From an uncultured Actinomycetes bacterium (lineage in GTDB: Bacteria > Actinomycetota > Actinomycetes > S36-B12 > CAIYMF01): DNA of 32,000 nucleotides. The notes under the pieces are model-generated. The model searched no databases. It was not told the origin of the DNA and saw only the letters and a list, made by a program, of their open reading frames with translations. Positions within the stretch are counted from its first letter, which is position 1, and every line of letters starts with the position of its first letter. The position numbers were made by a program, and so were the translations under genes. This document shows, piece after piece, positions 449-20,780 of the stretch. The stretch spans positions 1,470,001-1,502,000 of the forward strand of contig CAWJMG010000003.1 of the NCBI GenBank assembly GCA_963843975.1, written 5' to 3'.

Positions 449-1096
449 CTAGACGACGGCGGCCTTGCGGCTCGGGATCACCGAGTCGACGATGCCGTAC
501 TCGACGGCCTCGTCGGCCGTGAGGATCTTGTCGCGCTCGATGTCCTTCTTGACCTGCTCCGGGTCGCGCCCGGTGTGCTTGGCGAGGATCGACTCCATCG
601 CCGTACGCATGCGCAGGAGCTCGGCCGCCTGGATCTCGATGTCCGTGCCCTGGCCGCCACCCTCGGTGTACGGCTGGTGGATCAGGACGCGGGAGTTCGG
701 CAGGGCGTAGCGCTTGCCCGGGGTGCCGGCACCGAGGAGCACCGCGGCGGCCGAGGCCGCCTGGCCGAGGCACACGGTGGTGATCTGCGGCTTGACGAAC
801 TGCATCGTGTCGTAGATCGCCGTCATAGCGGTGTACGAGCCGCCGGGCGAGTTGATGTAGATGCTGATGTCGCGGTCGGGGTCCATCGACTCCAGGCACA
901 GGAGCTGTGCCATGACGTCGTCGGCGCTCGCGTCGTCGATCTGCACGCCGAGGAAGACGATGCGCTCCTCGAAGAGCTTGGAGTACGGGTCGTAGCGCTT
1001 GTAGCCCTGGGGCGAGCGCTCCTCGAACTGGGGCAGGACGTAGCGCGCCTGCGGGCCGGGGGCGGTGATGCCCGACGGGGTGAACAGCTGGCTCAT
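449..1096 (-). CDS. clpP2: ATP-dependent Clp protease proteolytic subunit 2
   Basis: 215-aa ORF. ClpP family signature YINSPGGS and Ser-site context [13 protein letters not shown]. It is the second of two tandem clpP genes between tig and clpX. Confidence 0.93.
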
Positions 1097-1127
1097 GTCG
1101 TAGGTCTCCGTATCCGTCGGTCGCTGA

Positions 1128-1742
1128 TCAGGCCGTGCCGCCGCCGCCGGGAACGTCCAGTGCGGACGTCACGACGTGGTCGACGATGCCGTACTCCTTG
1201 GCCTCGTCCGCGGAAAACCACTTCTCCCACTCGGAGTCCTCGATGATGCGCTCGACCGGCTGACCGGAGTGGTGCGCGATGAGCTCGGCCATCTGGCGCT
1301 TGATGAGCAGCATCTGCTCGGCCTGCTTCTGCACGAGGCTCTGGACGCCGCCGAGGCCGCCCAGCGGCTGGTGCATCATCACGCGGGCGTGCTTGAGCGC
1401 GTAGCGCTTGTTGGGCGCGCCGGCCGTCAGCAGGAACTGGCCCATCGACGCGCACATGCCGAGCCCGAAGGTGGCCACGTCGTTGGGCACGAACTGCATC
1501 GTGTCGTAGATCGCCATGCCCGCCGAGACGCTGCCGCCCGGGCTGTTGACGTACAGGTTGATGTCGGCCTTGGGATCCTCGGCCGAGAGCAGCAGGAGCT
1601 GACGGACGATCTCGTTCGCCATCTCGTCGCGCACCTCTCCCTCGAGGAAGAGGATCCGCTCACGGAGGAGTCGCTCCTTGATCGAGTCGCCGTAGCCGGT
1701 CACGCCAGCGCCGGGGCCTCGATCGGTCCAGGTACCGCTCAC
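1128..1742 (-). CDS. clpP1: ATP-dependent Clp protease proteolytic subunit 1
   Basis: ClpP motifs YVNSPGGS and [14 protein letters not shown] prefer the internal GTG at 1742 (VSGTWTDRG...), preceded by GGGAGGA SD, over the track start at 1826. Confidence 0.9.
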
Positions 1743-1801
1743 GGTGGTCCTCCCAGGTAAGTCCGCGTCGTACGTCGTCGCGTGCTCGACCCTAACGACG
1801 A

Positions 1802-1835
1802 AACACCCCCGTGCCATCCCGGGCACGGGGGTGTT
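1802..1835 (-). terminator. Intrinsic-terminator-like hairpin after tig (14-bp stem aacacccccgtgcc/ggcacgggggtgtt, followed by UUU on the minus strand)
   Basis: Perfect inverted repeat 44 nt downstream of the tig stop, with a short T run after it on the transcribed strand. Confidence 0.65.
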
Positions 1836-1878
1836 CGCCGTAGGCGTGACGCGGGCCGCTCAGCGCGACCCGGACGGG

Positions 1879-3244
1879 TCAGTGGTTGTGACCCTCGTGG
1901 TCGTCGTGGTCGTGACCCTCGTGGTCGTGACCCTCGTGGTCGTGGCCCTCGTGGCTGTCGAACTCGGGGACGCCGGCAGTCGCGAGCTCGTTGAGCGCCG
2001 AGAGGTCGATGACCGTGCCCTCGGTGTCGACGATGCGCGCGTGCTCGAGGACGTGGGCGAGCGCCTTGCTGCGACGGACCTCGGAGACCGCGGCGGGCAC
2101 CTGGCCGGCGTTGACGAGCTCCTGGGCGAACTGGTCGGGCGTCATGCCGTAGCGCGGCGCCTGCTGCACGAGCCAGGACGACAGCTCGGCCTCGGAGACG
2201 GCCAGCTCCTCGGTCTCGGCGATCTTGTCGAGCACGAGCTGGCTCTTGAGGCCGTCGCGCGTCTGCGTCTCGACCTCGGCGCGGTGGTCGTCGTCGCCGT
2301 GGCCGTCGGAGAAGTGGTCCTCGACCTGCTGGGCGATGGCGCTCTCGGGCACCGGCACCTCGGTCGCGGCGAGGAGGGCCTCGGCGACCTTCTCGCGGGC
2401 GGCGTAGCCCTGCTCGAGCAGCTTGACGCGGGCGAGGCGGTCGGACAGATCCGCACGCAGCTCCGAGATCGTGTCGAACTCGCTGGCCAGCTGGGCGAAG
2501 TCGTCGTCGGCGGCGGGGAGCTCGCGCTCGCGCACGGTCGAGACCTTCACCGTGACGGTGATGTCCTTGTCGGCGTACTCGCCGCCCTCGGGCGTGAAGG
2601 TGAAGGTGCGCTCGTCGCCTGCGGCAGCGCCCTCGACGGCCTCGTCGAAGCCGGGGAGCATGCCGCCGGTGCCGACCTCGTACGACAGCGCGGTGGCGTC
2701 GAGGTCGTCGACCGAGGTGCCCTCGAAGTCGCCGGACAGGTCGAACAGGATCACGTCGCCGGAGGCGGCGGCGCGCTCGACGGTCTTGAGCGAGCCGAAG
2801 CGGCTGCGCAGGCTGTCGAGCTGGGTGTCGACGTCCTCGTCGGTGACGACGGCCGGGTCGACGACGACCTCGATGGTGTCGTACGCCGGAAGGTCGAACG
2901 CGGGGACGACGTCCATCTCGGCCGTGTACGACAGCGGCGCCGCGTCCTCGAACGTCTGCACGTCGACCTCGGGGCGGCCGAGCGAGCTTGATGTCGTTCT
3001 CGCGCAGTGCGGCGTCGAGGCTCTCGTTGATGGCGTCGTTGACCGCCTCGTCGAGGACCGCGGCACGACCGACGCGCTGGTCGATCACGCGGTTGGGCAC
3101 CTTGCCCTTGCGGAAGCCGGGCACCGAGATCTGCGCGGCGATGCGCTTGTACGCGGCGTCGAGCGAGGGCTTGAGCTCCTCGAACGGCACCTCGACGGTG
3201 AGCTTCACCCGGGTGGGCGACAGGGTCTCGACGGCGCTCTTCAC
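1879..3244 (-). CDS. tig: Trigger factor (frame break near 2981-2988 as sequenced; His/Asp-rich C-terminal tail)
   Basis: N-terminus [50 protein letters not shown] is in the frame of ORF 1739..3244. The rest ([13 protein letters not shown]...[12 protein letters not shown]...) is in the frame of ORF 1879..3066. Span is 1366 nt = 455 codons + 1. Confidence 0.9.
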
Positions 3245-3576: not shown

Positions 3577-3647
3577 GCGGGTGTAGCTCAATGGCAGAGC
3601 CCCAGCCTTCCAAGCTGGCCATGCCGGTTCGATCCCGGTCACCCGCT
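3577..3647 (+). tRNA. tRNA-Gly (anticodon UCC)
   Basis: A 71-nt cloverleaf folds by hand: acceptor GCGGGTG/CACCCGC, D stem GCTC/GAGC, anticodon stem CCAGC/GCTGG with loop CT-TCC-AA, T arm GCCGG-TTCGATC-CCGGT, discriminator T. CCA is not encoded. Confidence 0.92.
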
Positions 3648-3652
3648 CCGCT

Positions 3653-3701
3653 CGATGCCCTGACCAGCCGCCGGCGAAGCCGGCCCCTGGTCAGGGCATC
3701 G
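3653..3701 (+). terminator. Long hairpin right after tRNA-Gly (15-bp stem cgatgccctgaccag/ctggtcagggcatcg with nested gccggc-gaa-gccggc)
   Basis: Perfect inverted repeat read from the sequence, starting 6 nt after the tRNA 3' end. Confidence 0.6.
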
Positions 3702-3708
3702 TCGCACC

Positions 3709-3725
3709 GCGGGTGACCGGGATCG
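3709..3725. repeat. Inverted 17-nt copy of the tRNA-Gly 3' end (T-loop to acceptor)
   Basis: gcgggtgaccgggatcg is the exact reverse complement of cgatcccggtcacccgc at 3630-3646. Confidence 0.85.
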
Positions 3726-3754
3726 GGAGGAACCCGACGCACCCCCACGACCCC

Positions 3755-3820
3755 CCGCGCCGAAGGCGCCACCTGGTCGTCAGCCCGTGCCCCACCGAGA
3801 CGGACCCGGTCACCACGGCG
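3755..3820. repeat. Direct repeat copy 1 (~66 bp; 46-bp perfect core 3775-3820)
   Basis: The core ggtcgtcagcccgtgccccaccgagacggacccggtcaccacggcg recurs exactly at 3891-3936. The flanks ccgcgccgaaggcgcca / ccgcgccaaggcgccag are near-identical. Confidence 0.9.
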
Positions 3821-3871
3821 TCACAGACCCCGTCCGACCGTGGGCCGGCACCCGCCCCCGCAGACGGGGCG

Positions 3872-3936
3872 CCGCGCCAAGGCGCCAGCCGGTCGTCAGC
3901 CCGTGCCCCACCGAGACGGACCCGGTCACCACGGCG
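3872..3936. repeat. Direct repeat copy 2 (~65 bp; core 3891-3936)
   Basis: Same as copy 1. The offset is 116 bp, which is not a multiple of 3, so this is not a coding repeat. Confidence 0.9.
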
Positions 3937-4004
3937 ACAAGGACGGTGATCGACGGCGGGGCTACCCGACCGCCCCCGAGCTCACCGTCGACCAGACTGT
4001 CCGG

Positions 4005-4601
4005 GTGACCGAGCGGCCCGCACCATCGCGACCCCGGCTCGTCGTCGCGTACGGCACTCACCCCGCCCACGACCTCCTCCGCGCCGAGGCCGCCCGCTTC
4101 CACCACGTGCCCCCCGACCGCATCGTCATCGCCCACGCGTGCCCCCGCTGCGGCAGCGACGAGCACGGCCGCCCGATCCTGCTGCCGACGGCCGCCCTCC
4201 GGAGCCCGGCCCACGTCAGCCTCGCCCGTGCCGGCGACCTGTCCGTGGTCGCCCTCACCGACGCCGGCCCCGTCGGCATCGACCTCGAGCCCGACGGCGC
4301 CGCCGACTTCCCCGGCTTCGACGACGTCGCCCGCCACGCCGACGAACGCGGCACCGACGCGACCGTCTCCTGGGTCCGCACCGAGGCGCTGCTCAAGGCG
4401 CACGGCCTCGGGCTCGTCGTCGACCCGCGAGACGTCAGCATCAACGCCGACGGATCCATCACCTGGGACTCGCCGCACGCACCGCCCGGGCCTGCCTGGC
4501 TGCGCGACCTCGCCGTGCCCGGCCACGTCGCGTCGGTCGTCGTCCTCGCCGATCACGACGTCGCGGACCTGTCCGTCACCGTCGGACCCCCGACGTACTG
4601 A
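4005..4601 (+). CDS. 4'-phosphopantetheinyl transferase, Sfp type (start uncertain)
   Basis: Motifs CPRCGSDEHGRP, VGIDLEP (G-x-D-x-E) and WVRTEALLKAHGLG (W-x-x-x-E-A-x-x-K). GTG 4005 is the only in-frame start downstream of the repeat region. There is no convincing SD. Confidence 0.75.
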   Translation: MTERPAPSRPRLVVAYGTHPAHDLLRAEAARFHHVPPDRIVIAHACPRCGSDEHGRPILLPTAALRSPAHVSLARAGDLSVVALTDAGPVGIDLEPDGAADFPGFDDVARHADERGTDATVSWVRTEALLKAHGLGLVVDPRDVSINADGSITWDSPHAPPGPAWLRDLAVPGHVASVVVLADHDVADLSVTVGPPTY

Positions 4602-4617
4602 GCGCAGCCGGGACGCC

Positions 4618-5919
4618 TCAGCGCGGGGCGACCGGCAAGGCAGGAAGCGGTCGCGCACGCAGCCAGGGATCGAAGAGGTCGGTCAGCGGTTCGCCGACCA
4701 GCTCGGCGGCGAGCGCCTCGAACATCGCGGTCGTGACCGAGCGGTAGCGGTTGCGATCGATCCAGGTGCGGAGCAGGAAGAAGAACCGGTCGTCGCCGAT
4801 CCTCAGACGCAACGCGTGCAGCAGCAGCGCACCCCTCTTGTAGACGCGGTCGTCGAACATGAGGTCGGGCCCCGGGTCCACGAGCAGCAGGTCTTGCGGC
4901 TTGGCGTCCAGCTTCGTCCAGTGGTCGCGGGCACGCGCGTCGGCGGAACGCCCGCCCGACTCCTCGGACCACAGCCACTCGCAGTAGCAGGCGAATCCCT
5001 CGTGCAGCCAGATGTCGCGCCACGACGACACCGTCACCGCGTTGCCGAACCACTGGTGCGACAGCTCGTGCGCAACGAGGCGCACATTGTCCCAGTCGGA
5101 GGTCAGGAAGTTCGACCCGAAGGTCGACATCCCTTGCGCCTCAAGGGGGATGTCCAGCTCGTCCTCAGTGATGACCACCGTGTAGCCGGCGAACGGGTAG
5201 GGACCGAAGAGCCGCCCGAAGAAGTCGAGCATCTCCGGCTGCCGGCCGAACGCCTGGTCGTACCGCGCGAGCTGCGCCTGCGGGAGCACCGCGGTCATCG
5301 GCACCTCGGAGGCAGCCACAGGGCGAACGACGTACCGCCCGATCTGCACGGTGGCGAGATACGTGGCCATCGGCTCGTGCTGCTCGTAGACCCACCGCGT
5401 GGTGCTGGCCGACCGCCACTGGCTGGTGCAGATGCCGTTGGCCACCACGTGGTAGGCGTGGGGGGCCGTGAGCTCGATGCGGTACGTCGCCTTGTCGTCC
5501 GGGCGGTCGTTGCAGGGGAACCACGACGGCGCGCCGTTGGTCTGGCCGGCGACGAGCACGCCGTCGGCGAGCTCCTCCCAGCCGCACTCGTCGTCGCCGT
5601 CGGGCACGGGCCGCGGCCGTCCGTCGTAGGTCACGACCACACGGAACCCTTCGGCCGCCTTGATCGGGCGCCGCGGCGCCACGACCAGGTGGTCGGCGCG
5701 GGCGACGTACTTCGCCGCTGCACCGTCGACCGTCACCTTCGTGACCCGGAGCCCGGAGAGGTCGAGCCTCAGCTGCTTCAGGTCGATGACCGCCTCCGCC
5801 GTCAGCGCCGCCTTGCCGCGGAGCTGGTTGCTCTCGACGTCGTACGACAGCGTGAGGTCGTAGTGCGACACGGCGTACGAACGGTCCCCGCGGTGCGGGA
5901 AGTACTCCGGCGCCTTCAC
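4618..5919 (-). CDS. M1-family zinc metallopeptidase lacking the GxMEN exopeptidase motif
   Basis: HELSHQWFGNAVTVSSWRDIWLHEGFA (HExxH-x18-E). GTG start at 5919 with GGAGGAG SD; GTGA overlap with the upstream synthetase stop. The track ORF 4618..6690 is over-extended. Confidence 0.85.
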   Translation of the reverse strand: MKAPEYFPHRGDRSYAVSHYDLTLSYDVESNQLRGKAALTAEAVIDLKQLRLDLSGLRVTKVTVDGAAAKYVARADHLVVAPRRPIKAAEGFRVVVTYDGRPRPVPDGDDECGWEELADGVLVAGQTNGAPSWFPCNDRPDDKATYRIELTAPHAYHVVANGICTSQWRSASTTRWVYEQHEPMATYLATVQIGRYVVRPVAASEVPMTAVLPQAQLARYDQAFGRQPEMLDFFGRLFGPYPFAGYTVVITEDELDIPLEAQGMSTFGSNFLTSDWDNVRLVAHELSHQWFGNAVTVSSWRDIWLHEGFACYCEWLWSEESGGRSADARARDHWTKLDAKPQDLLLVDPGPDLMFDDRVYKRGALLLHALRLRIGDDRFFFLLRTWIDRNRYRSVTTAMFEALAAELVGEPLTDLFDPWLRARPLPALPVAPR

Positions 5920-8900
5920 TCGTCTCCTCCGCCGTCGACATGTTGCCACGGACCGATCGGGTTGCCGATCCATCGTGTCTTGTCGGGGACGAACTCCCCG
6001 CGCATCACGAGCGACACCGGCCCGACCGTCGCGTGCCGCCCGAGCGTCGCCGCCGGGAGGATGACGCTGTTGGGGCCGAGGGTCGATCCCGTCCGCAGCG
6101 TGACGGTGTCCATGCTGAGCACCCGGTCGTGGAACAGGTGGGTCTGGACCACGCAGCCCTGGTTGACGGTGGCTCCTGCCTGCAGGTGGATGAGGTCGGC
6201 CTCGGGCAGCCAGTACGTCTCGCACCAGACGCCGCGGCCGATCTTGGCACCGAGGGAGCGCAGCCACAGGTTGAGGACCGGCGTGCCCGTCGAGGGCCGC
6301 GCGAACCACGGCGCGGCCACTGCCTCGACGAACGTGTCCGCCAGCTCGTTGCGCCACACGAACGAGCTCCACAGCGGGTGGTCGCCGACACGGAGCCGCC
6401 CGACGAGCGCCCACTTGGCGAGCGTCGTCACGACCGCGGCCACGGTCGCCGCCGCGATGACGACGGGTCCGCTCAGCAGCACCGCCACCCACCAGCCGTA
6501 CGCCGACGCGAGCGCGATCTGCGCGACGACGACACCGAGCCCGACCGCGACTCCGACCATGACGGGGACGAGCCGGCAGAGCTCGACCAGCGCCCGCGCC
6601 ACGACCAAGCGGGTCGGCGGGTCGTACGTGCGGCTCCGGTCCGCCTTCTGCTCCACGCGGCGCAGCTTGGTCGGCGGGCTGCCGAGCCACGACGTGCCGG
6701 CCTTGGCCTTCGTACGGCGCGGCGCCGCGGACAGCACCGCGACGAGCCCCCGCTTGGGCACCTTGCGACCAGGAGCGGCCATGCCGGAGTTGCCCACGAA
6801 CGCATGCTTCCCGATCTCGACGTGCTCAACCCGCAGCCAGCCGCCGCCGAGCTCGTAGCCGCCGAGCAGCGTGTCGTCGGCAAGGAAGGCACCTTCCCGC
6901 ACCGTCGTCAGCTTGGGGATGAGCAGGACGGTCGAGGCCTCGACGCTCGGACCGATGTTCGCGCCGAGCCCGCGCAGCCAGGCCGGCGTGAGCGAGCTGG
7001 AGTAGAGCGGGAAGAGCCAGGTGCGTGCCTCGTCGAGGACGCGGAGGGTCGCCCACGCCTGCCACGCGCGAACTCCGTGCACCGGATGCGCCCCGGGAAC
7101 GAGCCCGATCCCGAGGAGCCGCACGACGAGCCAGATCAGCAGGGCCAGCAGAAGCATGCCGACGACGGTCGCCAGCGGCAGCCAGGCCAGGGCCCTCAGC
7201 GCTGCAGCCGCCACCGAGCCGGCGTCCTTCAGCTGCTGCGCCGCAGGGGCGACCGCCGCCACGGCGGCGATCCCTGGCAGCGAGGCGATGAGCACGGCGA
7301 TCGCCGTGTAGCCGACGACCCACACCGGCCGGTTGAGCGGCCGCTCGGCCCACGGCCCGCGCGCAGTCTTGCGCGGCCGTGCCGGTGCGCCAGCCCAGAG
7401 CTCGCCGGCGGGGACGTCGCCGAAGACGGCTGAGCCGGGCGCGATCTCCGCGCCGGCGCCGATCACCGCGCCCGGCGCGAGCGTGCTGCGCGCCCCGATG
7501 CGCGCGTCGGGGCCGATACCGACGGCGCCGACGCGCAGCAGGTCGCCGTCGAGCCAGTGCCCTGACAGGTCGACCTCGGGCTCGACCGAGCACCCGTCGC
7601 CGAGGACGAGGTGCCCGGTGACCGGCGGCACCGAGTGGAGGTCGACGTGGCGACCGACCGTGGCGCCGAGCAGCCGCGCGTAGAGCCGCATCAGCGATGC
7701 ACCCGCGAGGTTGGCGGCGCCGAGCTCGTCGGCCAGCCGCTCCGCGAGCCACACGCGCAGGTGCACCCAACCGCCGCGCGGGTAGGTGCCCGGGCCGACG
7801 CCGACGAGGATCGCCCGCGCCCCCACCGCGGTGAGCAGCATGCGACCGGGGGCCGACACCAGCAGGAGCCAGGCGACGACGACCACCGCCCAAGGCGCGC
7901 TCGGCAGCCAGGCGACCCCGAACCACTGGGCAGCCGCCGTCGACCCGAGCGCAGCCCAGGTGAGCCATCGCAGCCCGGTGATCGTGCGGAGCGGGATGGT
8001 CAGCAGCACCTGTGCCACCTGGGACCCGCGCGATACGGGGTGAACGGTGCGGTCGACGTACGCCGCCGGTGTCGCGAGCTCGTCGAGCGCGACCGCGAGG
8101 TCGCCGATCCGGGGGTGGTCGTAGACCTCGGCGACGGTGACCTCGGGGTACGTCGCCCGCAGCCGCGACACCAGCTGCGCCGCAGCCAGGCTCCCGCCGC
8201 CCAGGTCGAAGAAGTCGTCCTCGGCGCTCGTGACCGTGGCCCCGAGGATGTCGGCCCAGAGGTCCTGCAGCTGCCCGGCCGTGCCCTCGAGCCGCGTGGA
8301 CTCCGCGATCTCGACGGTGCCGAGCGGCCAGGGCAGGGCGTCGCGGTCGATCTTGCCGGAGGTGCGGGTGGGCAGCGTGTCGACCTGTGCCAGACGAGGG
8401 ACGAGGGCCGCGGGCATCGTTGCCCGAAGGGTCGCGACCGCAGCCGCCGGGTCGAACTCGTCGGTGGTGGCGACGTAGCCGACGAGCAGCGCGTTGCCCG
8501 ACCCGGTGCGCCGAACCGCCGCCGCAGCGCCGGTCACGCCGGGGAGCGCCAGCAGGGCGCTGTCGATCTCGCCGAGCTCGATGCGCCGGCCGCCGACCTT
8601 GACCTGGTCGTCGGCGCGTCCGAGGAAGAGCAGGCCCTCCTCCTCGTAGCGGACGAGATCACCGCTGCGGTAGGCGCGGTCCCAGCCCAGCGTGGGCATG
8701 GGGGCGTACTTCTCCGCGTCCTTCACCGGGTCGAGGTACCGCGCGAGGCCGACGCCGCCGATGATCGAGCTCGCCGGTGCCGCCGGGCTCCACCTGGACG
8801 CCCGACTCGTCGACCACGGCGAGGTCCCAGCCGTCGAGAGGCAGCCCGATCCGCACCGGTGGCTCGCCCGTCAGCCGGGCACCGCAGGCCACGACCGTGG

Positions 8901-9772
8901 CCTCGGTGGGCCCGTAGGTGTTCCAGACCTCGCGGTCCTCCTCGACCAGCCGTGCCGCGAGCTCCGGCGGGCACGCCTCGCCACCGAGGATGAGCAGGCG
9001 TACGGCGGCGAGAGCATCCGCGGGCCACAGCGCGACGAGAGTCGGCACGGTCGACACGACCGTGATGTCGTTGGCGACCAGCCACGGCCCGAGCTCCATG
9101 CCGCTGCGCACGAGCGAGCGCGGCGCCGGCACGAGGCAGGCGCCGTACGCCCACGCGAGCCACATCTCCTCGCACGACGCGTCGAAGGCGACCGACAGCC
9201 CCGCCATCACGCGGTCGCCCGGGCCGAGCGGCTCGTCCTGCAGGAAGAGCCGCGACTCGGCGTCGACGAACGCCGCCGCGCTCCGGTGCGACACGGCCAC
9301 GCCCTTCGGCGCACCGGTCGAGCCGGACGTGAAGATCACCCAGGCGTCGTCGGTCGTCGTCGGGAGGGTGCCGTCGGCCGCCGCGGGCTTCGGCTTCCTG
9401 ACCGTGCAGCTCGAGGTCGTCGGTGAGCACCGCGGCCACGTCCGTCTCGCCGAACACCGTCCGAGCGCGCTCGTCGGGGTCGTCGGCGTCGACCGGCACG
9501 TACGCCGCCCCCGCGACCAGCGTGCCGGCGATGGCGATGTAGAGGTCGGTCGTGCCCGAGCGGATCCGGACCCCGACCTTGTCGCCCGGCCCCACCCCAG
9601 CTGCGTGCAGCTCCTCGGCGACCTCCTCGGCCGCGTCCAGGAACTCCTCGTAGGTGAGAACCTGGGCGCCGTTGTCGAGCGCGGGCTCGTCCGCGTGGTC
9701 CGCCGCCGTGCGTCGCAGCACGTCGACGAGGGTCCGCGGCGCGGCCGCCAGCGGACCGCGCAGCAGAGTCAT
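5916..9772 (-). CDS. Pls-type single-module NRPS-like synthetase: A-PCP followed by three repeats of 2 TM segments plus a beta-helix-like domain (two frame breaks as sequenced, ~8767 and ~9395-9415)
   Basis: A-domain motifs LTYEEF, VAGAAYVPVD, FTSGSTGAPKG, FDAS, NTYGPTE, GELIIGG, YRSGDL, GRADDQVKVGGRRIELGEI, SGKIDR. PCP motif FFDLGGGSL. No C or TE motifs. Six hydrophobic segments and three hexapeptide-like regions. The pieces lie in ORFs 8723..10093, 8659..9339 and 5916..8726. Span is 3857 nt = 1285 codons + 2. Confidence 0.85.
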
Positions 9773-9854
9773 GCAGGCAGTCTCTCGGACGGTCCGTCGC
9801 GTGACCAAGCGCCGCGCTCGGGCACCACCGGAGGGTCCGGTACGTCGTACTACC

Positions 9855-11238
9855 GTGCGTCTCTCCGAAACCCCGGCTGCGGCCGCCGCCATCGCCGCTG
9901 CGCTGCTGCTCGCGGCCTGCTCGACGCCCTCCTCGAACGACTCGACAGGCTCGAGCGCACCGGTCACCAGCACGCCGACGGTCGGCCCGTCGACCAGCGC
10001 CGGTGCGTCCGCTTCGGCCTCCCCCTCGTCACCTCGACCGACGCGCTCCGGCGCCGACGCGGCGCTGCTCGCAGCGGCACGCAACGGCGACACCGCCGGC
10101 GTCCGTCAAGCCCTGGCCGACGGTGCGGACGTCGAGGCCGCCGACGACCTCGGCCGCACGGCCCTGGTGCAGGCGGCGTACGGCAACCACCTCGAGATCG
10201 CCCGGATCCTGGTCCGTGCCGACGCCGACGTGAACCACCTGGACGCGAGCACCCAGAGCCCGTACCTCATCGCGACGAGCGAGGTCGGCGACGACCCGCG
10301 GCTGCTCGATCTCCTGCTCTCGCACGGTGCGAACCTGCGCGCGAAGGACAGCTACAACGGCACGGGGCTGATCCGTGCGGCAGATCGTGGATTCCCGAGG
10401 ATCGTCGATCGCCTGCTCGAGGCCGGGATCGAGATCGACCACGTCAACCGGTTGGGGTGGACCGCCCTGCACGAGGCGGTAGTCCTCGGCGACGGGTCCG
10501 AGCGGTACCAGCGGGTGGTGCGCCTGCTCGTCGACTCCGGCGCGGACCCGCTGCTGCCGACGCAGAGCGACGGAGTCCGCCCTCGCGCGCACGCTCAGGC
10601 ACGCGGCTTCACGAGGATCGACGCCCTCGTGAGGTCGGCCGCTGAAGGTCTCACGCCCGATCGACGTCTGCTTCGGCACGCACGCGCAGGCAGCGTCGTC
10701 GCCGCGGAGGCAGCCCTGGCCGATGGTGCCGAGGCTCGAGGTCCGCGACGCGCGCGGGCGCACGCCTCTGCTGCTCGCCGCCACGGAGGACCGGGTGCCG
10801 ATGGCGAGGATGCTGGTCGCCCGGGGGGCCGATGTGAACGCCCTGGACGGCCGCCATGACACGCCGTTCCTCGTCACGGGCGTGACCGGCAGCGTGGCCA
10901 TGCTGAAGGCGCTGCTCCCCGGCCGACCCGACACGACGATCCGCAACCGGTACGGCGGGGTCGCAGTGATCCCGGCGTCCGAGCGCGGCCACGCGGAGTA
11001 CGTGGCGGCTGTCCTCGCCCTGACCGACATCGACGTGAACCACGTGAACGACCTCGGCTGGACGGCGCTGCTCGAGGCCGTGATCCTCGGCGACGGCGGA
11101 CCGCGGCACCAGTCCGTCGTCCGCGCGCTGCTGGCCGCAGGCGCAGACCGCTCGATCGCGGACCGCGACGGCGTCACGCCGTTGCAGCACGCCGTACGCA
11201 GGGGGCAGACCGCCGTGGCGGCTCTGATCGACGGCTGA
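9855..11238 (+). CDS. Ankyrin-repeat lipoprotein, two homologous halves (frame break ~10733 as sequenced)
   Basis: Signal and lipobox VRLSETPAAAAAIAAALLLAAC. ANK repeats include GRTALVQAAYGNHLEIARILVRADADVN, LGWTALHEAVVLG, GRTPLLLAATEDRVPMARMLVARGADVN and GVTPLQHAVRRGQ. The parts lie in ORFs 9654..10859 and 10723..11238. Span is 1384 nt = 461 codons + 1. Confidence 0.8.
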
Positions 11239-11516: not shown

Positions 11517-12788
11517 ATGAAGACACGTGCGTGGATCGCCAGCTTGACTGTCGCCACCGTCGCGGCGGCGCTCAGCGTCGTCACGGTGGCCGTGCCTGCG
11601 GCCGACGCCGCGCCCCCGGTCGAGGTGCCTGTCGGCACCCTCAGCCTCTCGCTCGGTGCCATCGACCAGTTCACGTTCGACAAGGGCACCGCCGACGCCA
11701 CCGACGACATCGTGCAGCCGATCGGGGCTGTGGTCGGCAAGTGCACGCTCACCCCGACCAGCGGCCCGCTGGCCGCGTTCAGCGCCACCGGCGGCGTGCC
11801 CGGCTTCTACCGCGACTCCATCGGCGTCGCCGGGCCGACCGGCAGCAACGCCTACGGCCGCGAGTGCGCGCGCGTGAGCAAGACGCCCGCCGAGACCCTG
11901 ACGCTGTCGCTGCCCCGCACCTCGGGCGGCGCGTACGACACGATCTTCGGCCAGGCCTACGCCAACGCAGCCAGCCTCGAGGTCGAGGTCAAGGGCGACG
12001 CCGTCGTCCAGGCGACCACCTCGCTGGGCGGCACCCCGACCGGCACCTTCTACCTGCGCGACGGCGACGAGCACTACCGCTCGACTCCGCCGGCTCTGCC
12101 CAACACCTCGACCTGCTCCGCGAACTCCCCCGGCTACGGCGACGACGACGGCGAGCGCGACAACTGCACGTGGAAGATCAGCGGCGCCAAGTTCGACAGC
12201 ATCACGTTCACGGTCCTGCGCGGCGCGTTCTCGCTCGAGGGCGGCAGCGACTGCCGTTCCACCGCGGTCCGCACGAGCACGTTCTCGCTCGTGGTCGAGG
12301 CCGACGGCCTGCTCAACTGCGGCGCCACCACCCCTGGCGTGACCAGCGACGGCTCTATCTCCGACGTCGCCATCACCCGCCTCGAGAACGGACTGGCGAC
12401 GGACGGCACCTGCGTCGGCATCCCGTTCACCCTCCGCGCTGACGGCGGCTCGACCACCTTCCACAAGCCGGCCACCACGCAGGGAAGCGCGCAGTTCACG
12501 CTGTCGCTGACTCGGACCATCCCGGCGTCGTCCGGCATCGACCCGCTGACAGTCGACTGGGAGGACGGCACCACGGTGTACGACCTCCCCTGGTGCAAGC
12601 CGGGCCTGAAGACGGGCGCGACGTTCAACTACGCGGCGCTCACCCCCGCCGATGACGCCTCGAGCGCCACGGCCGGCATCCAGTACGCCTGCCAGTACGA
12701 CCTCGACCCGACCTTCTCGGACGACGGCACGCTGACGATCGTCGACTCGGTCTACTTCACCGGCGACATCAAGTTCACGACCCGCTAG
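11517..12788 (+). CDS. Secreted Cys-rich protein of unknown function, paralog A
   Basis: ATG preceded by aaagggga SD. Signal peptide MKTRAWIASLTVATVAAALSVVTVAVPAADA. Colinear with 13053..14339 and shares the C-terminal GDIKFTTR. I recognise no known domain. Confidence 0.8.
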   Translation: MKTRAWIASLTVATVAAALSVVTVAVPAADAAPPVEVPVGTLSLSLGAIDQFTFDKGTADATDDIVQPIGAVVGKCTLTPTSGPLAAFSATGGVPGFYRDSIGVAGPTGSNAYGRECARVSKTPAETLTLSLPRTSGGAYDTIFGQAYANAASLEVEVKGDAVVQATTSLGGTPTGTFYLRDGDEHYRSTPPALPNTSTCSANSPGYGDDDGERDNCTWKISGAKFDSITFTVLRGAFSLEGGSDCRSTAVRTSTFSLVVEADGLLNCGATTPGVTSDGSISDVAITRLENGLATDGTCVGIPFTLRADGGSTTFHKPATTQGSAQFTLSLTRTIPASSGIDPLTVDWEDGTTVYDLPWCKPGLKTGATFNYAALTPADDASSATAGIQYACQYDLDPTFSDDGTLTIVDSVYFTGDIKFTTR

Positions 12789-13052: not shown

Positions 13053-14339
13053 ATGAAGACTCGTGCCTGGCTCGCAGGCCTCGCCGGCACCACCCTCATC
13101 GCCACCGTCGGGGTGGTGGCCTCGACGAACGTCGTCGCCTCCGCGGACCCGGTCGCGCCCATCGCCGTCGGCACGGTGGAGATCGCCACCGGCCCGACCG
13201 CCTCGATGGTCTTCAGGAACACCGCCGGCGTGGTCAAGGCCACGCAGGCGATCAGCACGGCCAGCGACAAGTGCAGCCTCACGCCCGTCACCGGGCCGGT
13301 CGGCGCCTGGTCCGCCACCAACGGCGTGCCCAGCTACTACCAGACCGGCATCGGCGTCTCCGGCATCAAGGCCACGGGCACCGCCTGCGGTCGCATCGAC
13401 CCGTCGCCGGACGAGACCCTGACCCTGAAGCTCAACGGATCCGCGCTCCCTGCCCAGCTCAGCTCGCCGCTCGCCCGGTGGGCATCGCTCGACGTCGAGT
13501 TCAAGGGCGGCGCGACGGTGGTCGCGACCCTGAAGCGTGGCGGTGCCGCGGTCGACACCTACACGATCGTCACCGGGACTTCGGCACCGGCCACGCCCCC
13601 GGCCAACACGCAGTACTGCCTCAACGGCTCGGACTCGGGTCCGGACTCGTTCAGCGGCGACAACTGCCAGTGGAGGATCGGCTCGCCGACATCCTTCACC
13701 GCACCTTTCGACGAGATCACCCTCGACGTCACCGTCGGATCGGGAACCTCGCTCAAGGGCGGCGGCGACTGGGCGGTGCCGGCGAACCACCGGAGCGTCT
13801 TCGGTCTGTACGCCCAGCCCGACGGCGTCCTCGACTGCAACGCGGGCGCGCAGAACGTGTCGCCGGACAGCGCCGAGTGGAGCATCTCCGTCAACCGTTT
13901 GACCAACGGCGACGTCGACGAGGTGTGCACGCCGGTGCCCTTCAGCCTGCGCAAGGACGGCTCATCGGCGACCTTCCGCAAGCCCCTCGACAGCCAGTAC
14001 TCGGCCCAGTTCGTCATCGACGTCGTCAAGAAGCAGGTGGCCGCGACCAACCCGATCGCCGTGATCCAGGTGAACTGGGAGGACGGCGCCGGCGCCAAGG
14101 ACGTCGGCTGGTGCAAGGACTCGTACTTCGTCGGCACCGACCTCTCCGGCAAGCCGGTGATCGACTACGGCGTGCTGACGGTCGTCGAGGCCGATGCCAG
14201 CAACGGCAGCGCCGCCAGCCTTCCCGGCTTCCAGTTCGCCTGCCTCTACAAGCAGTCCGCCGACCTGCAGGCGGACGGCAGCCTGATCACGACGGACGGC
14301 CTGTACGTCACGGGCGACATCAAGTTCACGACCCGCTAG
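13053..14339 (+). CDS. Secreted Cys-rich protein of unknown function, paralog B
   Basis: ATG preceded by caagggga SD. Signal peptide MKTRAWLAGLAGTTLIATVGVVASTNVVASA. Conserved Cys positions and C-terminal GDIKFTTR are shared with paralog A. Confidence 0.8.
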   Translation: MKTRAWLAGLAGTTLIATVGVVASTNVVASADPVAPIAVGTVEIATGPTASMVFRNTAGVVKATQAISTASDKCSLTPVTGPVGAWSATNGVPSYYQTGIGVSGIKATGTACGRIDPSPDETLTLKLNGSALPAQLSSPLARWASLDVEFKGGATVVATLKRGGAAVDTYTIVTGTSAPATPPANTQYCLNGSDSGPDSFSGDNCQWRIGSPTSFTAPFDEITLDVTVGSGTSLKGGGDWAVPANHRSVFGLYAQPDGVLDCNAGAQNVSPDSAEWSISVNRLTNGDVDEVCTPVPFSLRKDGSSATFRKPLDSQYSAQFVIDVVKKQVAATNPIAVIQVNWEDGAGAKDVGWCKDSYFVGTDLSGKPVIDYGVLTVVEADASNGSAASLPGFQFACLYKQSADLQADGSLITTDGLYVTGDIKFTTR

Positions 14340-14354
14340 ACCCAGCACTCCCGC

Positions 14355-14395
14355 CGAGAGGGCGGAGCGCGGCGGCAGCCGCCTCCGCCCTCTCG
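14355..14395. terminator. Long hairpin between convergent paralog B and the regulator (cgagagggcggag ... ctccgccctctcg with an inner gcggc/gccgc stem)
   Basis: 13-bp outer stem plus a nested 5-bp stem, read directly. It sits between two converging stops (14339 and 14429). Confidence 0.65.
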
Positions 14396-14428
14396 CACGT
14401 GGTACCGGCGTACGGCGCCGGATCCGCG

Positions 14429-17400
14429 TCAGGTGGCGAGGACGCCGAGGCCGGCCAGCACGGCGCCGGCCTCCTCGGACTTCGCTCGCGCGGCGGCGGT
14501 CTCGCCGGTGAGGGCGAGCACGTCGGCCTGCAGGCCCAGCAGCTGGGCCCGCTCGAACGGCAGTGAGTACTGGTCGGCCAGTGCGACACCGGCATCGGCC
14601 TCGACGAGCGCCTCGTCGTGGCGGCCGAGCGCGGTGAGGGCGCGGGCACGCTCGAGGTTGAGGCGCGGCTGCAGCGCGACGCCCTCGCCGGTGGCAGAGC
14701 CGGCGTTGGACTCCAGCAGCACCAGCGCGTCCTCGGCGCGGCCCTGGCGCGTCAGCGCCTCCACCCGCACGAGCGCCGACTCCAGCGCGCTCACCTTCTG
14801 GCTGAGCGCGACCAGCTCGAGCTCGGCGTCCTGCGCCAGCGCCTCGGCGGCCTCGAGCTCGCCGCGGCCGAGCAGCACTCGGGCGCGGTGCACCTCTCCG
14901 TACGCCGCGAAGGCGGGGACTCCGGAGACGCGCAGGACCCGGACGGCGTCGGTGAGCACCGTCTCCGCCTCGTCGAAGCGCCGCTGGCTCGCGAGCACCT
15001 CGCCGAGGCTGAGCGCCACGATCGCGGCGCCGACGACGTCGCCGACCTCCTGGGCTGCGACGCGGCCGGCGGCGAACGACGCGACCGCCTCGTCCCATCT
15101 GCCGGCGTAGTAGGCGAAGCCGCCGAGGTTCCCGTGGGCGGCGAAGGCGCGCAGGCTGTTGCCGCGCGCGTTCATGACCGTGAGCGCCTCGCGGGTGCGG
15201 TCGCCGACCGACGTGTCGCCGAGCTGGAACGCGGCGACGTCCATCGTGAGCAGCGCCTGCTCGAGCGCCTCGAACTCGCCCGTCTCGCGCGCCTCGTCGA
15301 GCAGCGTCTGCGCGATGTCGAGCGCGTCCTGCAGCCGCTCCTGCTCGAGCCGGATGCCCGCGCGCACCGACCGGAGGCGCACCCGGGTGCGCCGTGCGTC
15401 GAGCGAGGTCTCGGCCGAGAGCATCCGCTCGGCCTTGCTGAGCCTCGGCGAGAGCCGGCCCGAACGCACCCGACCGCTGCCGCACCTGGGCGCGCTGACG
15501 CAGCAGAGTGGCGCTCATGAGCGGGTCCTCCGGTGAGAGGCGCAGCGAGAGTCGGAACGCGTCGAGCGACTGCTCGTACATGCCTGCGAGGTCGCGCACC
15601 TCGCCGAGCCGGCGCCACAGGTCGCGCCTGTCGACGTCGGACACCTCGGCCACGCGCCGACCCGACTCCAGCGCTCGCTCGTAGAGCGCCGCGGCGTCGG
15701 CGTTGGCGTAGGCGCGTGCCGCGCGGTCGCCCGCCATCCGTGAGTAGCGCCAGGTGGCGGCGTCGTCGCCACCGCGCCAGAAGTGCAGCGACAGCGTGTC
15801 GGCGTCGGCCTCGAGATCCTCCGACAGCTTCTCGACCGCACGGCCCGCGGCCGCGTGAAGCTTGGCCCGCAGCCGGTAGGCGAGCCCCTCGTACGCCGCG
15901 TCGCGGATCATGCCGTTGCGGAACTGCAGGCGCCCGCTGCCGTCGGGCTCGAGGAAGCTCTCGAGGCGCGAGAGCGTCGCGGCGTCGACGAGGAGATCGT
16001 CGCTGCGGATGGTCTCGTTCAGCACCTCGGTGCGGAACGAGCGGCCGAGCACCGAGGCGTAGCGCAGGATGCGGCGCGAGTGCGCGTCGAGCGCGTCGAT
16101 CTGCGCGTCGAGCGCGGCGTGGAGGTTCTCGGGCACCGAGTCGAGCGAGCCGACCTCGGCGAACACGCGCGCGATCTCCTCGACGAACAGCGGGTTTCCG
16201 CCCGCACGCCGTACGACCTCGTCGATCTCGTGCGGGCGCATCGGTGTGGCTGCCGTCGCCGCGATCACGAGGCGGCGGATGACGTCGTCAGGCAGCGGGC
16301 CCAGCTCGACGCGCTCCCCCGCCGGGTCGAAGCCGCCCTCGTCGCGCCGGGTGACGAGCATGGCCCATGGACGACGAGGCGCCTCCGCGGCGAAGCGCGC
16401 GAGGACGTGGGCCGACGCCGCATCCGCCCAGTGGCCCTCCTCGACACGGAGGAGCAGCGGCCCGGGGAAGGTCGTCTCGACGAGGCGCAGGATGAGGTCG
16501 GCGATGCGGTCGGGGCGGAACCGCGGCTCGATCGCTCGTACCTCGGGGGACTCGGGCATCGACACGGTGACCACGTCGCCCAGCAGCGAGGCGAACGCCA
16601 GCAGCTCGGGCGCGAGACGTCGCACCCCGGCGCGCACGGCGTCGGCCATCTCGTCGTGCGTGCCGCGCTCGACGCGGAGCAGGGCACGCACCGGGTCGCG
16701 CAGGACGCGGTACGGCGCGGTGGCGCCGTACGGCTCCGCGCGCACGGTGATGGTGCGCACGTCGAACCCGGCGAGCGCCTCGGCGACGACGCGGCTCTTG
16801 CCGGTGCCGTTGCCCCCGCTCACCACGACCACGCCGCCGTCGCCCATGAGCATCCGGCCGACGTTCGACCGGATGGCGTCGAGCTCGACCTCGCGGCCGA
16901 GCAGCGGCAACGAGGTGCCCGCGCCCGTGCCGCGCGTGCCCGTCTCCTCCGCGACGGCGAGCACCGGCACCGGGACGGTCTTGCCCTTCATGGGGAACGG
17001 GCCGGCCGGGGTCGTGGCGAAGAGGGTGCGCGAGCGCTCGAGGACGGTGGGGTGGGCGAACAGCACGCCGTGCGGGGCCTTGCCCATGATGCGCGCCGCT
17101 GTGTTGGTGGTGTCGCCCATCGCGGAGTACGCCGCCCGCTCGACGGCGCCGACCTCGGCGGCGAACACGTGCCCGCGGTTGACGCCGATCTGCAGCGGCA
17201 GCGGCGTGCCGACGTCGAGGACGCGGCGCATCGCCCGCAGCATGCGGCCTTCGTCGTCCTCGCTGGAGTAGGGGACGCCGGAGCCCATGAAGAGCTTGCC
17301 GCCGTCGCTGTCGAGGTCGGTCGCGAGCAAAGTGACGCCCTCGTCGTTCATGGCCTGCATGAACACCGACACGGTGCTGTCGAGGGCCTCCGCCACGGCT

Positions 17401-18191
17401 TGCGGGCCAGGGCCCGACAGCAGTGCGTCGGTGCCGCTGAAGCGCGCGAACGCGATCGTCGCGATCTTGTGCTCGGGGTCGGGCACCCGCTCGGCGAGGT
17501 AGTCGCCCAACGCGTTCGGGAAGAGCGCACGCAGCCTGTCGCCCTCGACGTCGGGCACCGGCGGCGGTTCGGTGAGCGGCGGGTCGACCGAGCGCCAGCG
17601 CAGCAGCAGCGCGCCGTCCTCCGCGCGCGGCCGCGTCGAGCCTCGCGGCAGCCGGGCAGCGGTGGCGGCCGTGACGACGATCTCGCCGGCGTTCGCGAGC
17701 TTCTCGGCGTCGGCCGTCGCCGTGGCCGCAGGACCGAGGATGAGCAGCTCGCGGGTCGGTGCACCGACGAGGAAGAAGTCGACCGGTCCGGAGTGGATGC
17801 CGACCGACATCCGCAGCTTGAGCCGCCCGACCGAGGTCGGGATGGCGGAGGCGTCGCGCAGGGCGATGCGCATGTCGACGGCGGCGGCGCAGGCCCGCAC
17901 CGCGTGGTCGTCGCCGCGGAACGTGAACAGCAGGGCGTCGCCGCCGAACTTCAGGAGCTCGCCGCCGCGTGCCCCGGCCATGCCGAGCATGCCGCCGAAG
18001 ACGCGGTTGAGGGTCTCGATCAGCTCCTCGGCGCCGATGCGGCCGCGGCGGGCGAGGCGCTCGGTCAGGGCCGTGAAGCCGGAGATGTCGGCGAAGACGA
18101 GGGTGGCGTCGATGCCCTGCCAGGAGGAGCCGGGGGCTGCGTCGTCCCACTCGAGGGCGACCCGGGGCACGTGGCGTCGGAGGTCGGTCAC
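14429..18191 (-). CDS. Large signalling protein: two tandem class III cyclase-homology domains, a P-loop NTPase and TPR-like repeats (frame break ~15400-15480 as sequenced)
   Basis: CHD1: VFADISGFT, KFGGDALL. CHD2: MGDTTNTAARI. P-loop VVVSGGNGTGKSR. The Ala/Leu-rich helical-repeat C-terminus continues in ORF 14429..15469. GTG start with GGAGGAGGG SD. Span is 3763 nt = 1254 codons + 1. No LuxR-type HTH seen at the C-terminus. Confidence 0.8.
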
Positions 18192-18292
18192 GACCTATCC
18201 CTCCTCCCCGTAGTCCGGATGCGCCCGACCACCGCCCCAGCGGTCCGCACGCTCACCGTAGGGGCTGAGCACGGCCCGCGAGACTCGTTGTC

Positions 18293-19199
18293 TCAGGTCG
18301 TGGACCGTCGTGCCCTCGGGCGGCGCTGACCAGGGAGCCGCTGGCACCCGGGGCACCAGTAGAGACGACGACCCTGGTGGTCCTGCGCCGAGACAGGGAG
18401 GCCGCACCGGACGCAGGGCCGCCCTTCTCGCCTGTAGACGTAGACGCCGGTGCTGCGGCGCAGCCTGCGGATCTGCGGGGTGTCCTCGCCGCCGTCGAGG
18501 CTCGGGGTCGTCCGAGTTGGGCCGGTCGAGGTCGAGCGCGGCGAGCGCCTCTGTGTGGGCCGGGTCGACCGTGACGATGCGACCCCGGCGTACGCCGTCC
18601 TTCATCAGCAGCACGAGGTCTGCCCACATGGCGTCGAAGACCGGGCCGCGCAGCAGCCGGCCCTCGAGGAACGGCGACACCTGGTGCCTGAAGAGGAGCT
18701 CGGCGCGGTAGATGTTGCCGACGCCCGAGAGCACCGACTGGTCCATGAGCAGCGTGCCGACCGGCGCGCGGCTCGACAGGATCCGTGCCTTCGCGCGGTC
18801 GGGTTCGGCGTCGGCGCGCAGCGGGTCGGGGCCGAGCCGGGCCACGATCGCGTCGCGGCCGTGGGTGCCCACGAGGTCGCACGCCGTCGGGCCGCGCAGG
18901 TCGGCGTACGACGCCGAGCCCTCGATCCGCCAGCGCACGGCACCGCGCGGTTCTGGCGCAGGGCCCTTGGCCGTGATCATCGTGCCGTACAGACCGAGGT
19001 GGACGTGGACGACGTCGTCGCCCTCGAACGCGACGAACAGGTGCTTGCCGTACGCCTCGGCCTGCTCGAGCACCCGGCCGGTCAGGATCTGCGCGCCGGA
19101 GTCGAAGCGCCCCTGCGGGCTGCTCGACGCGACGACCTGGCCGGCGAACGTGCGGTGCAGGCCGCGGGCGAGGCGGTGCAGGCTGTGTCCCTCGGGCAC
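18293..19199 (-). CDS. nei: Fpg/Nei-family DNA glycosylase (endonuclease VIII-like; frame break ~18500 as sequenced)
   Basis: Starts V-PEGHSLHRLARGL (catalytic Pro2 context) after a GAGGAG SD. H2TH region LMDQSVLSGVGNIYRAELLF. The zinc finger VYVYRREGRPCVRCGLPVSAQDHQGRRLYWCPGCQ is found only in a third frame ending at TGA 18293-18295. Span is 907 nt = 302 codons + 1. Confidence 0.85.
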
Positions 19200-19235
19200 C
19201 GGGTGCTCGCTCCTCGTCTCGCGTACGGTCGGCGC

Positions 19236-19439
19236 ATGGCCAAGCAGAAGCGTGCACCGTCGGACGGCGACGAGCATCCCGACGACCGTGCGCTGGACCG
19301 GCTGGCCGACCGCGGCCCCTCGCGTGTCGGCGTCGAGGGCGCGATGCGCTCCCGCGACGTCTCCCGGCCGAGCCCCGCGCAGCTGGCCGCGGCTCAGCGA
19401 ACCGTGAAGCCGAAGACAGGTCCGCCGATCAGCGGCTGA
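19236..19439 (+). CDS. Possible small protein (67 aa), hypothetical
   Basis: ATG..TGA: MAKQKRAPSDGDEHPDDRALDRLADRGPSRVGVEGAMRSRDVSRPSPAQLAAAQRTVKPKTGPPISG. It fills the nei-rpiB gap and has G/C at most third codon positions. SD is weak, and it is hidden in the tail of track ORF 18450..19439. Confidence 0.4.
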   Translation: MAKQKRAPSDGDEHPDDRALDRLADRGPSRVGVEGAMRSRDVSRPSPAQLAAAQRTVKPKTGPPISG

Positions 19440-19443
19440 CGCG

Positions 19444-19899: not shown

Positions 19900-19925
19900 A
19901 GGCCGATCGTGCCAGCCCGGAGCCG

Positions 19926-20567: not shown

Positions 20568-20780
20568 TCAACGAGTCTACGTCGCCCGGCCGCAGCCGCA
20601 CCTCCGCCGCAGGATGTCCGGCGGCGCCCGCGGCACGGGCCACGTTCGGCGGTCAGGCCCACCACGCGTGCGAGGATATGCCGATCGACGGCGAGGCGAC
20701 CGTGCTCCCGAGGCACCGGCACCCTCGTCGTCCGTGCGACGGGTGTCCGTCGAACTGGGGCAGTGGGGAAGGACGGTCCG

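Follow-up and report, generated by a model that had tools for sequence, protein, structure and literature searches.

A Pls-family synthetase gene with a lysine-type pocket and a coupled peptidase gene in an uncultured actinomycete, most likely frameshifted by assembly errors

We analysed a 32,000-nucleotide stretch of DNA from an uncultured Actinomycetes bacterium (assembly GCA_963843975.1, contig CAWJMG010000003.1, positions 1,470,001 to 1,502,000), which is called the window below. Its minus strand carries a pls-type gene, related to the epsilon-poly-L-lysine synthetase Pls of Streptomyces albulus. An earlier reading made from the letters alone (the sequence-only reading) had described the product as an adenylation and carrier enzyme fused to a C-terminus with six membrane segments and three beta-helices. 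The gene and its parts are as follows; amino acid (aa) numbers refer to the protein corrected for two inserted bases.

5916–9772, minus strand: pls-type gene, ATG at 9772, TGA at 5918–5916, 1284 aa once the two inserted bases are removed.
8319–9748, minus strand: adenylation (A) domain, aa 9–484 (PDB 7WEW, E=3.6e-187).
8094–8273, minus strand: carrier (T/PCP) domain, aa 500–559 (PF00550 PP-binding, E=1e-12), with FFDLGGGSL and the phosphopantetheine-attachment residue Ser527 (codon 8190–8192).
5955–8018, minus strand: Pls/PosA C-terminal polymerisation domain, aa 585–1272 (TIGR02353).
7809–8015, minus strand: membrane helix pair 1, transmembrane helices TM1 (aa 586–616) and TM2 (aa 627–654), which are helices 2–32 and 43–70 of the AlphaFold2 (AF2) model; hydropathy is clear for TM2 only.
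7326–7808, minus strand: C1 soluble domain, aa 655–815, two helices followed by a left-handed beta-helix (LbH); Pfam Hexapep at aa 752–782, AF2 strands, Foldseek matches to LbH acetyltransferases.
7110–7325, minus strand: membrane helix pair 2, TM3 (aa 816–848) and TM4 (aa 853–887), by hydropathy and AF2.
6615–7109, minus strand: C2 soluble domain, aa 888–1052, with a low-confidence basic loop at aa 995–1038, by AF2.
6405–6614, minus strand: membrane helix pair 3, TM5 (aa 1053–1091) and TM6 (aa 1093–1122), by hydropathy and AF2.
5919–6404, minus strand: C3 soluble domain, aa 1123–1284, by AF2, with a weak LbH_EIF2B match.

The G+C content across the window is 67–76%. Using third-codon-position G+C, we found one continuous minus-strand coding region from about 9840 to 5880, which runs through three successive phases (9841–9361, 9361–8761 and 8761–5881). 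The gene spans 3857 nucleotides (nt), that is, 1285 codons plus 2 bases, as the sequence-only reading had counted; it turned out that the two extra bases are two distinct single-base insertions. Because these lie at different sites, the uncorrected gene is split over three frames, and its longest open reading frame as written encodes 936 aa. The first frame is translated from the ATG at 9772 as MTLLRGP...VLTDDLEL, the second as TVRKPKP...FTSGSTG...NTYGPTE...GTGEL, and the third as IIGGVGLARYL... to the TGA at 5918–5916. The MTLLRGP start is common to all close relatives, and the corrected length of 1284 aa equals that of the closest relatives (85–91% identity). A promoter and terminator scan of 3600–10100 gave no match, as is expected at such a G+C content. 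The two inserted bases are placed as follows.

9406, minus strand: inserted base 1 (gene strand GAGCTG-C-ACGGTC), which puts residues 122 and 123 in different frames, within a variable linker ahead of FTSGSTG.
8766/8767, minus strand: inserted base 2, gene strand GAGCT-C-GATCATC; it breaks the core motif GELIIGG after residue 335.

At the first site, relatives of about 90% identity read DDLELTVRR/K.KP, and the window splits DDLEL and TVRKPKP across frames. An alternative placement of this frameshift at C 9385 was ruled out, since the same relatives put the frame change right after DDLEL, at 9406. At the second site, the aligned relatives keep an uninterrupted GEL[IV]IGG of equal length (GQLIIGG in one locus). 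The closest named relative, Longivirga aurantiaca, has an intact Pls of 1284 aa, 91% identical to the corrected protein, and its DNA lacks the extra base at 8766/8767. The host of the locus is close to Longivirga (Sporichthyaceae, Actinomycetota).

The window pls is an ordinary member of the well-known epsilon-poly-L-lysine (below, epsilon-PL) synthetase family with the usual partner peptidase gene. The corrected protein matches TIGR02353 ("Pls/PosA family non-ribosomal peptide synthetase") over the whole profile (positions 1–695 of 695) with 675.3 bits against a curated cutoff of 423.1 (E=9.5e-203), and the closest relatives carry the same name. The A-domain profiles PF00501 AMP-binding (E=5e-58) and TIGR01733 (328 bits, cutoff 317) were matched only after frame correction. 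Alignment with S. albulus Pls, which the sequence-only reading had proposed as a check, showed that the A domain is 66.5% identical over 469 aligned residues to the best solved structure (7WEW). All the adenylation and carrier motifs that this reading had listed were found in the frame-corrected protein in the order it gave: LTYEEF at residue 39, VAGAAYVPVD at 86, FTSGSTGAPKG at 147, FDAS at 196, NTYGPTE at 284, GELIIGG at 333, YRSGDL at 367, GRADDQVKVGGRRIELGEI at 384, SGKIDR at 471 and FFDLGGGSL at 520. The carrier serine codon had likewise been placed correctly and corresponds to residue 527. A Pfam scan of the corrected protein at E<=0.1 returned AMP-binding, PP-binding, Hexapep (1.6e-10), AMP-binding_C and LbH_EIF2B only, and thus no condensation (C), epimerisation or thioesterase (TE) domain, which agrees with the absence of such motifs noted earlier. 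The AMP-binding, PP-binding, Hexapep and TIGR02353 scores are well outside what chance would produce.

No solved structure matched the C-terminal part of the window Pls by sequence. The last 700 aa were modelled with AF2 on a 62-sequence alignment (mean local confidence score, pLDDT, 83.5; predicted template-modelling score, pTM, 0.85). The model consists of three repeats, each with two long helices, two shorter helices and a beta-rich domain. The top Foldseek matches in the PDB were hexapeptide-repeat serine, maltose and galactoside acetyltransferases. In a Kyte–Doolittle plot (19 residues, threshold 1.6), five of the six hydrophobic segments pass; the first (aa 586–616) is less hydrophobic and forms a long helix in the model despite its weaker hydropathy. 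Thus, the six hydrophobic segments in three pairs of the sequence-only reading appear as six long helices, of which TM1 is the weaker one by hydropathy. Three hexapeptide-like stretches begin at residues 705, 939 and 1177, and the proposed soluble stretches with such repeats are recovered by the Hexapep match, by the three beta-rich regions of the model and by the Foldseek matches to LbH proteins. A QTHLFHDR block in C3 is invariant across the 62-sequence alignment. AlphaFold and RoseTTAFold models of PosA, the delta-poly-L-ornithine synthetase of Acinetobacter baumannii, have six bent membrane helices beneath three packed left-handed beta-helices (PMC10522769). The profile match above cutoff, the A-domain identity, the AF2 model and the Foldseek matches support the Pls-type layout, in which a stand-alone A-T enzyme is fused to a six-helix, triple beta-helix C-terminus. 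The order A-T-(TM1-TM2-C1)-(TM3-TM4-C2)-(TM5-TM6-C3), with no C or TE domain, is that of S. albulus Pls, which comes from Streptomyces; the window differs in its Sporichthyaceae-like host and in the two single-base insertions.

To read the substrate pocket, the Stachelhaus positions were mapped via the 7WEW sequence, and this mapping reproduces the published Pls code. The specificity code of the window A domain is DAESIGTVVK (residues 197, 198, 201, 240, 261, 263, 285, 293, 294 and 473). All ten positions match the 7WEW sequence and the published L-lysine code of Pls (PMC10522769 Suppl. Table 2), and the code is exact in 195 of the 202 homologues examined. A Corynebacterium homologue that is 51% identical to Pls and has the same operon layout yielded epsilon-PL of 26–35 residues when expressed in S. 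coelicolor (PMC8117764). Taken together with the code match, this makes L-lysine the likely monomer of the window Pls. The sequence-only reading had held that polymer identity cannot be read from the sequence; this is not wholly so, given that the code is the published one for lysine. We also searched with a Pls A domain reconstructed from the alignment to 7WEW; only partial proteins came back, the best of them at 78% identity.

Two neighbouring genes accompany pls.

4618–5919, minus strand: 433-aa zinc metallopeptidase of the M1 family with an intact HEXXH-X18-E, in the position of PldII; its GTG start codon shares 4 nt (GTGA) with the end of pls.
3903–4601, plus strand: probable Sfp/AcpT-type phosphopantetheinyl transferase (PPTase), 232 aa as called in the source record (P0287), convergent, with weak ACPS, AcpT and HetI matches.

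The exact 433-aa M1 protein is on record on the 2.76-Mb source contig. Conservation was counted in 80 related genome loci; our searches traced the family as a whole to at least 597 genome loci, about 7900 database proteins and thousands of metagenome proteins. In 77 of the 80 loci, the gene immediately downstream of pls is an M1 homologue; the loci include Nocardioides, Rhodococcus, Nocardia, Mycobacterium, Tsukamurella, Kribbella, Amycolatopsis and others. The two genes overlap by 4 nt in 27 loci and by 1 nt in 18. In S. albulus, the metallopeptidase gene pldII lies immediately 3' of pls and is translationally coupled to it (PMC9223678), so that the window resembles the S. albulus locus also in its coupled downstream peptidase gene; the likeness to PldII is one of position and description. 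The pls-peptidase arrangement is also found in C. variabile (PMC8117764). The C. variabile Pls and the coryneform set to which it belongs (Jiang et al. 2021, PMC8117764) are, by their description, close to the window enzyme in being actinobacterial but non-Streptomyces and in having the same architecture, a Lys-type pocket and a peptidase operon. Our literature search found no paper that places PldII in the M1 family. The sequence-only reading had missed the M1 peptidase and did not recognise the neighbourhood from described pls loci, whereas the pls-pldII arrangement is a known one.

The same reading had also named an adjacent PPTase. Sequence support for it is weak (ACPS E=0.0032, below cutoff; AcpT 0.11; HetI 0.29). 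A homologue of this gene is present in 18 of the 80 loci, and its convergent position is kept in 17 of these 18. At the PPTase-like position in L084, a relative at 90% identity, there is a PF01648 gene. Its assignment as a PPTase stays a probable one.

These observations allow us to propose how the locus would work. The window gene would encode a single-module, membrane-bound homopoly(amino acid) synthetase resembling non-ribosomal peptide synthetases. Judging from a code identical to that of S. albulus Pls, the A domain would activate L-lysine as the adenylate, and the T domain would then carry the lysine as a thioester on its phosphopantetheine arm at Ser527; this arm is probably installed by the product of the convergent PPTase-like gene. 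By its fold and topology, the C-terminal domain would combine six membrane helices with three cytoplasmic left-handed beta-helix domains arranged as a pseudo-trimer like a hexapeptide acyltransferase. It may pass the lysyl group on to an epsilon-amino group, either that of free lysine or that of a free chain under extension, and repeated transfer would give epsilon-poly-L-lysine without a template, the epsilon linkage being the presumed one. For characterised members, published accounts describe adenylation of L-lysine by the A domain, loading of the T domain and use of free lysine or the chain by the C-terminal domain, with iterative formation of isopeptide bonds (Yamanaka 2008 as cited in PMC10522769 and PMC8117764). 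The translationally coupled M1 zinc peptidase is a putative counterpart of PldII, the polymer-degrading self-protection enzyme; it would shorten or break down the polymer, which may serve to protect the cell itself.

We therefore hold, with good though not full confidence, the joint reading that this is a pls-pldII-type cassette with a lysine-activating Pls synthetase and a coupled peptidase, whose frameshifts are assembly errors. Several points weigh against it. The source record itself has both pls frameshifts, and its gene call is a 927-aa fragment (P0250). We found no independent same-strain sequence over the two pls sites, and the exact corrected Pls is absent from the protein collection. 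The likeness of C1–C3 to S. albulus Pls is known here through the family hidden Markov model only, and the window M1 protein is likened to PldII by gene position, not by sequence. PldII has been described as working outside the membrane (PMC9223678), whereas no obvious N-terminal signal or membrane segment was seen in the M1 protein. Finally, no polymer could be detected in native C. variabile, where pls is silent (PMC8117764), so that a member of this family may go unexpressed. For the window pls, we infer polymer export and expression, and expression cannot be assumed because the C. variabile gene is silent natively.

The first two of these points are those on which a different explanation draws, namely that pls is a genuine, recently inactivated pseudogene. 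Both +1 insertions would then be real, and the gene would yield at most an N-terminally truncated product of 927–936 aa without most of the A domain. The sequence-only reading had itself named a gene shown by resequencing to be genuinely broken and unexpressed as one of the outcomes that would overturn it. We compared the window with L. aurantiaca both against its proteins, which reveal the frame changes, and by a gene-by-gene DNA alignment, which places the inserted bases. The syntenic L. aurantiaca locus (pepN, rpiB, fpg, cyclase-AAA-TPR regulator, unknown, ankyrin, pls, M1, unknown, tig, clpP, clpP) has all its genes intact. The window has six uncompensated single-base insertions relative to it (2984, 8767, 9406, 10733, 15444 and 18500). 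They fall in tig, in pls (two), in the ankyrin lipoprotein gene, in the cyclase-AAA-TPR regulator and in fpg/nei, and all of them shift the frame the same way. Thus, four further genes within 16 kb, including those for trigger factor and Fpg/Nei, bear the same kind of lesion as pls. Each of the six insertions falls within an AGCT core or on its border, a placement for which only 2.4–2.9% of window positions qualify (p about 1e-10). CTCGAG and GCTCG were also considered as the error context and rejected, since both words are very common in the window; the AGCT core passed the background test. An AGCT-bound consensus error may possibly be related to methylation.

Two of the six insertions could be checked in an independent assembly. 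Removal of base 18500 predicts a 301-aa Fpg/Nei protein, and this exact sequence is on record. The contig that holds it (L086, from the public run ERR12037365) also has an intact 1253-aa regulator. It is 99.94% identical to window 14314–19693 and differs by one mismatch and exactly two insertions, those at 15444 and 18500; a second contig of the same run is 100% identical to window 19681–20999. Neither the corrected trigger factor nor the corrected ankyrin protein had an exact match in the protein collection. The corrected pls itself has no other sign of decay: there is no in-frame stop in any of the three frame segments, the length does not differ from that of the 1284-aa relatives, and the ratio of nonsynonymous to synonymous substitution rates (Ka/Ks) against L. 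aurantiaca is 0.11 overall and 0.07–0.12 in every frame segment. In all 80 genomic homologues pls is intact (1277–1383 aa). The artefact reading of the two pls sites themselves rests on analogy and on the shared motif, because no same-strain sequence spans them; two other insertions of the same type are missing from the independent assembly. By our analysis, the pls insertions are most likely systematic consensus errors of the assembly, and therefore pls is most likely intact in the organism. We consider a genuine pseudogene unlikely.

The proteins of the 90% clusters that include pls were also viewed by source. Several long NCBI/ENA contigs (0.12–2.8 Mb) have shortened pls calls of 145, 447, 493, 927 and 1003 aa. 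JGI and Logan members are mostly full-length at 1284 aa, and some are partial. This pattern suggests that one class of assemblies shares the frameshift problem.

Another idea concerns the product rather than the gene. Both here and in the numerous non-Streptomyces actinobacteria that share the pls-peptidase-PPTase cassette, the polycation could differ in chain length, linkage or role from the secreted epsilon-PL antibiotic, for example as a cell-associated physiological polymer, perhaps tied to the ankyrin lipoprotein and to two secreted paralogs encoded nearby. No computed result points toward this, and we regard it as quite improbable. Several neighbours that the sequence-only reading did not recognise from described pls loci, namely the gene for the ankyrin lipoprotein, those for the secreted paralogs and that for the cyclase regulator, were rejected as parts of the system: they stand beside pls in 2–3 of the 80 loci (the ankyrin gene is matched in 3), and the context is different in the two 90%-identity relatives L084 and L085.

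It is very unlikely that the enzyme is a Pls/PosA synthetase of another cationic monomer (ornithine, 2,4-diaminobutyrate (Dab), 2,3-diaminopropionate (Dap) or beta-lysine), or one with an unusual linkage or chain length. The family does include enzymes that make five or more other polymers, and a Stachelhaus code does no more than predict the substrate (PMC10522769). The published codes are DAESIGTVVK for lysine (S. albulus Pls), DMEHNGTVSK for ornithine (PosA), DFECLSAVTK for Dab and DFEYVGTVTK for Dap (PMC10522769 Suppl. Table 2). The second code position sets the side-chain length, with Ala in lysine enzymes, Met in the ornithine enzyme and Phe in those for Dab and Dap (PMC10522769); the window enzyme has the lysine code throughout, including this Ala. 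PosA is of the same family and has the same predicted C-terminal fold, whereas it has Met at the second code position, is proteobacterial, has no coupled M1 peptidase described, and is only 36% identical to Pls in the A core (PMC10522769), far from the identity of the window A domain to Pls. In addition, the peptidase operon context has been reported for Pls and not for Dab/Dap synthetases (PMC8117764).

The C1–C3 domains share their fold with LbH acyltransferases such as serine acetyltransferase CysE and the maltose and galactoside O-acetyltransferases (Foldseek probability 1.0, E about 1e-4), at an identity of only 15–23%. The published model of PosA packs its three beta-helices in the manner of trimeric sugar-nucleotide acyltransferases (PMC10522769). 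The window enzyme differs from these acyltransferases in that its beta-helices lie in one polypeptide between membrane helix pairs, and its donor is a carrier-protein thioester rather than acyl-CoA. We give hardly any credence to the view that no free polymer is made and that acyltransferase-like beta-helix domains pass lysine from the carrier domain to a membrane acceptor (lipid, cell-wall polymer or protein). In its favour are the likeness of the soluble domains to O-/N-acyltransferases whose acceptors are sugars or small molecules, the extremely wide distribution of the family among actinobacteria without a reported polymer, and native C. variabile, which gave none that could be detected (PMC8117764). 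Against it, the characterised members (S. albulus Pls, the C. variabile homologue and PosA) have all been seen to release a free homopolymer, be it in vitro or in a heterologous host, and a peptide product would suit the conserved coupling with a peptidase.

The cassette of pls and a coupled peptidase gene has little discovery value in itself: Pls-type synthetases are characterised, they are named automatically by the NCBI annotation rules, and the pairing with a peptidase is published. The locus is a Sporichthyaceae-like example of a compact pls-peptidase(-PPTase) cassette that occurs in varied genomic contexts across Actinomycetota. The window pls should not be scored as a pseudogene, and the frameshifted genes of this assembly need polishing before any biological reading.

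Some further features of the region were observed. In L084 and L085, the pls-M1-PPTase trio is situated amid unrelated arsenic and phosphoesterase genes. The 433-aa M1 peptidase has no ERAP1_C domain and has a conserved E-A-Q-G-x-S-x-F-G at the position of the GXMEN exopeptidase motif; that domain is present in a second M1-family peptidase of the window (20780–23336, plus strand), which is a PepN of full size. The ankyrin-repeat lipoprotein gene (9855–11237, plus strand) is divergent from pls with a gap of about 80 nt; its product has a lipobox LLLAAC and is about 460 aa long once corrected. The secreted paralogs (11517–12788 and 13053–14339, plus strand) are 39% identical, have an MKTRAW... 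signal peptide and both end in GDIKFTTR; neither has a Pfam or NCBIfam match. In L. aurantiaca, a single 456-aa homologue of these paralogs adjoins the ankyrin gene. The segment made up of the pls cassette, ankyrin gene, secreted paralogs and regulator has clpP-clpP-tig (449–3244) on one side and fpg-rpiB-(Rv2466c-like)-pepN (18195–23336) on the other. We take these flanking genes to be a conserved housekeeping block, presumably nearly contiguous in Mycobacterium tuberculosis. The trigger factor gene (1879–3244, minus strand) encodes 454 aa once corrected at 2984, with a histidine-rich C-terminal tail.

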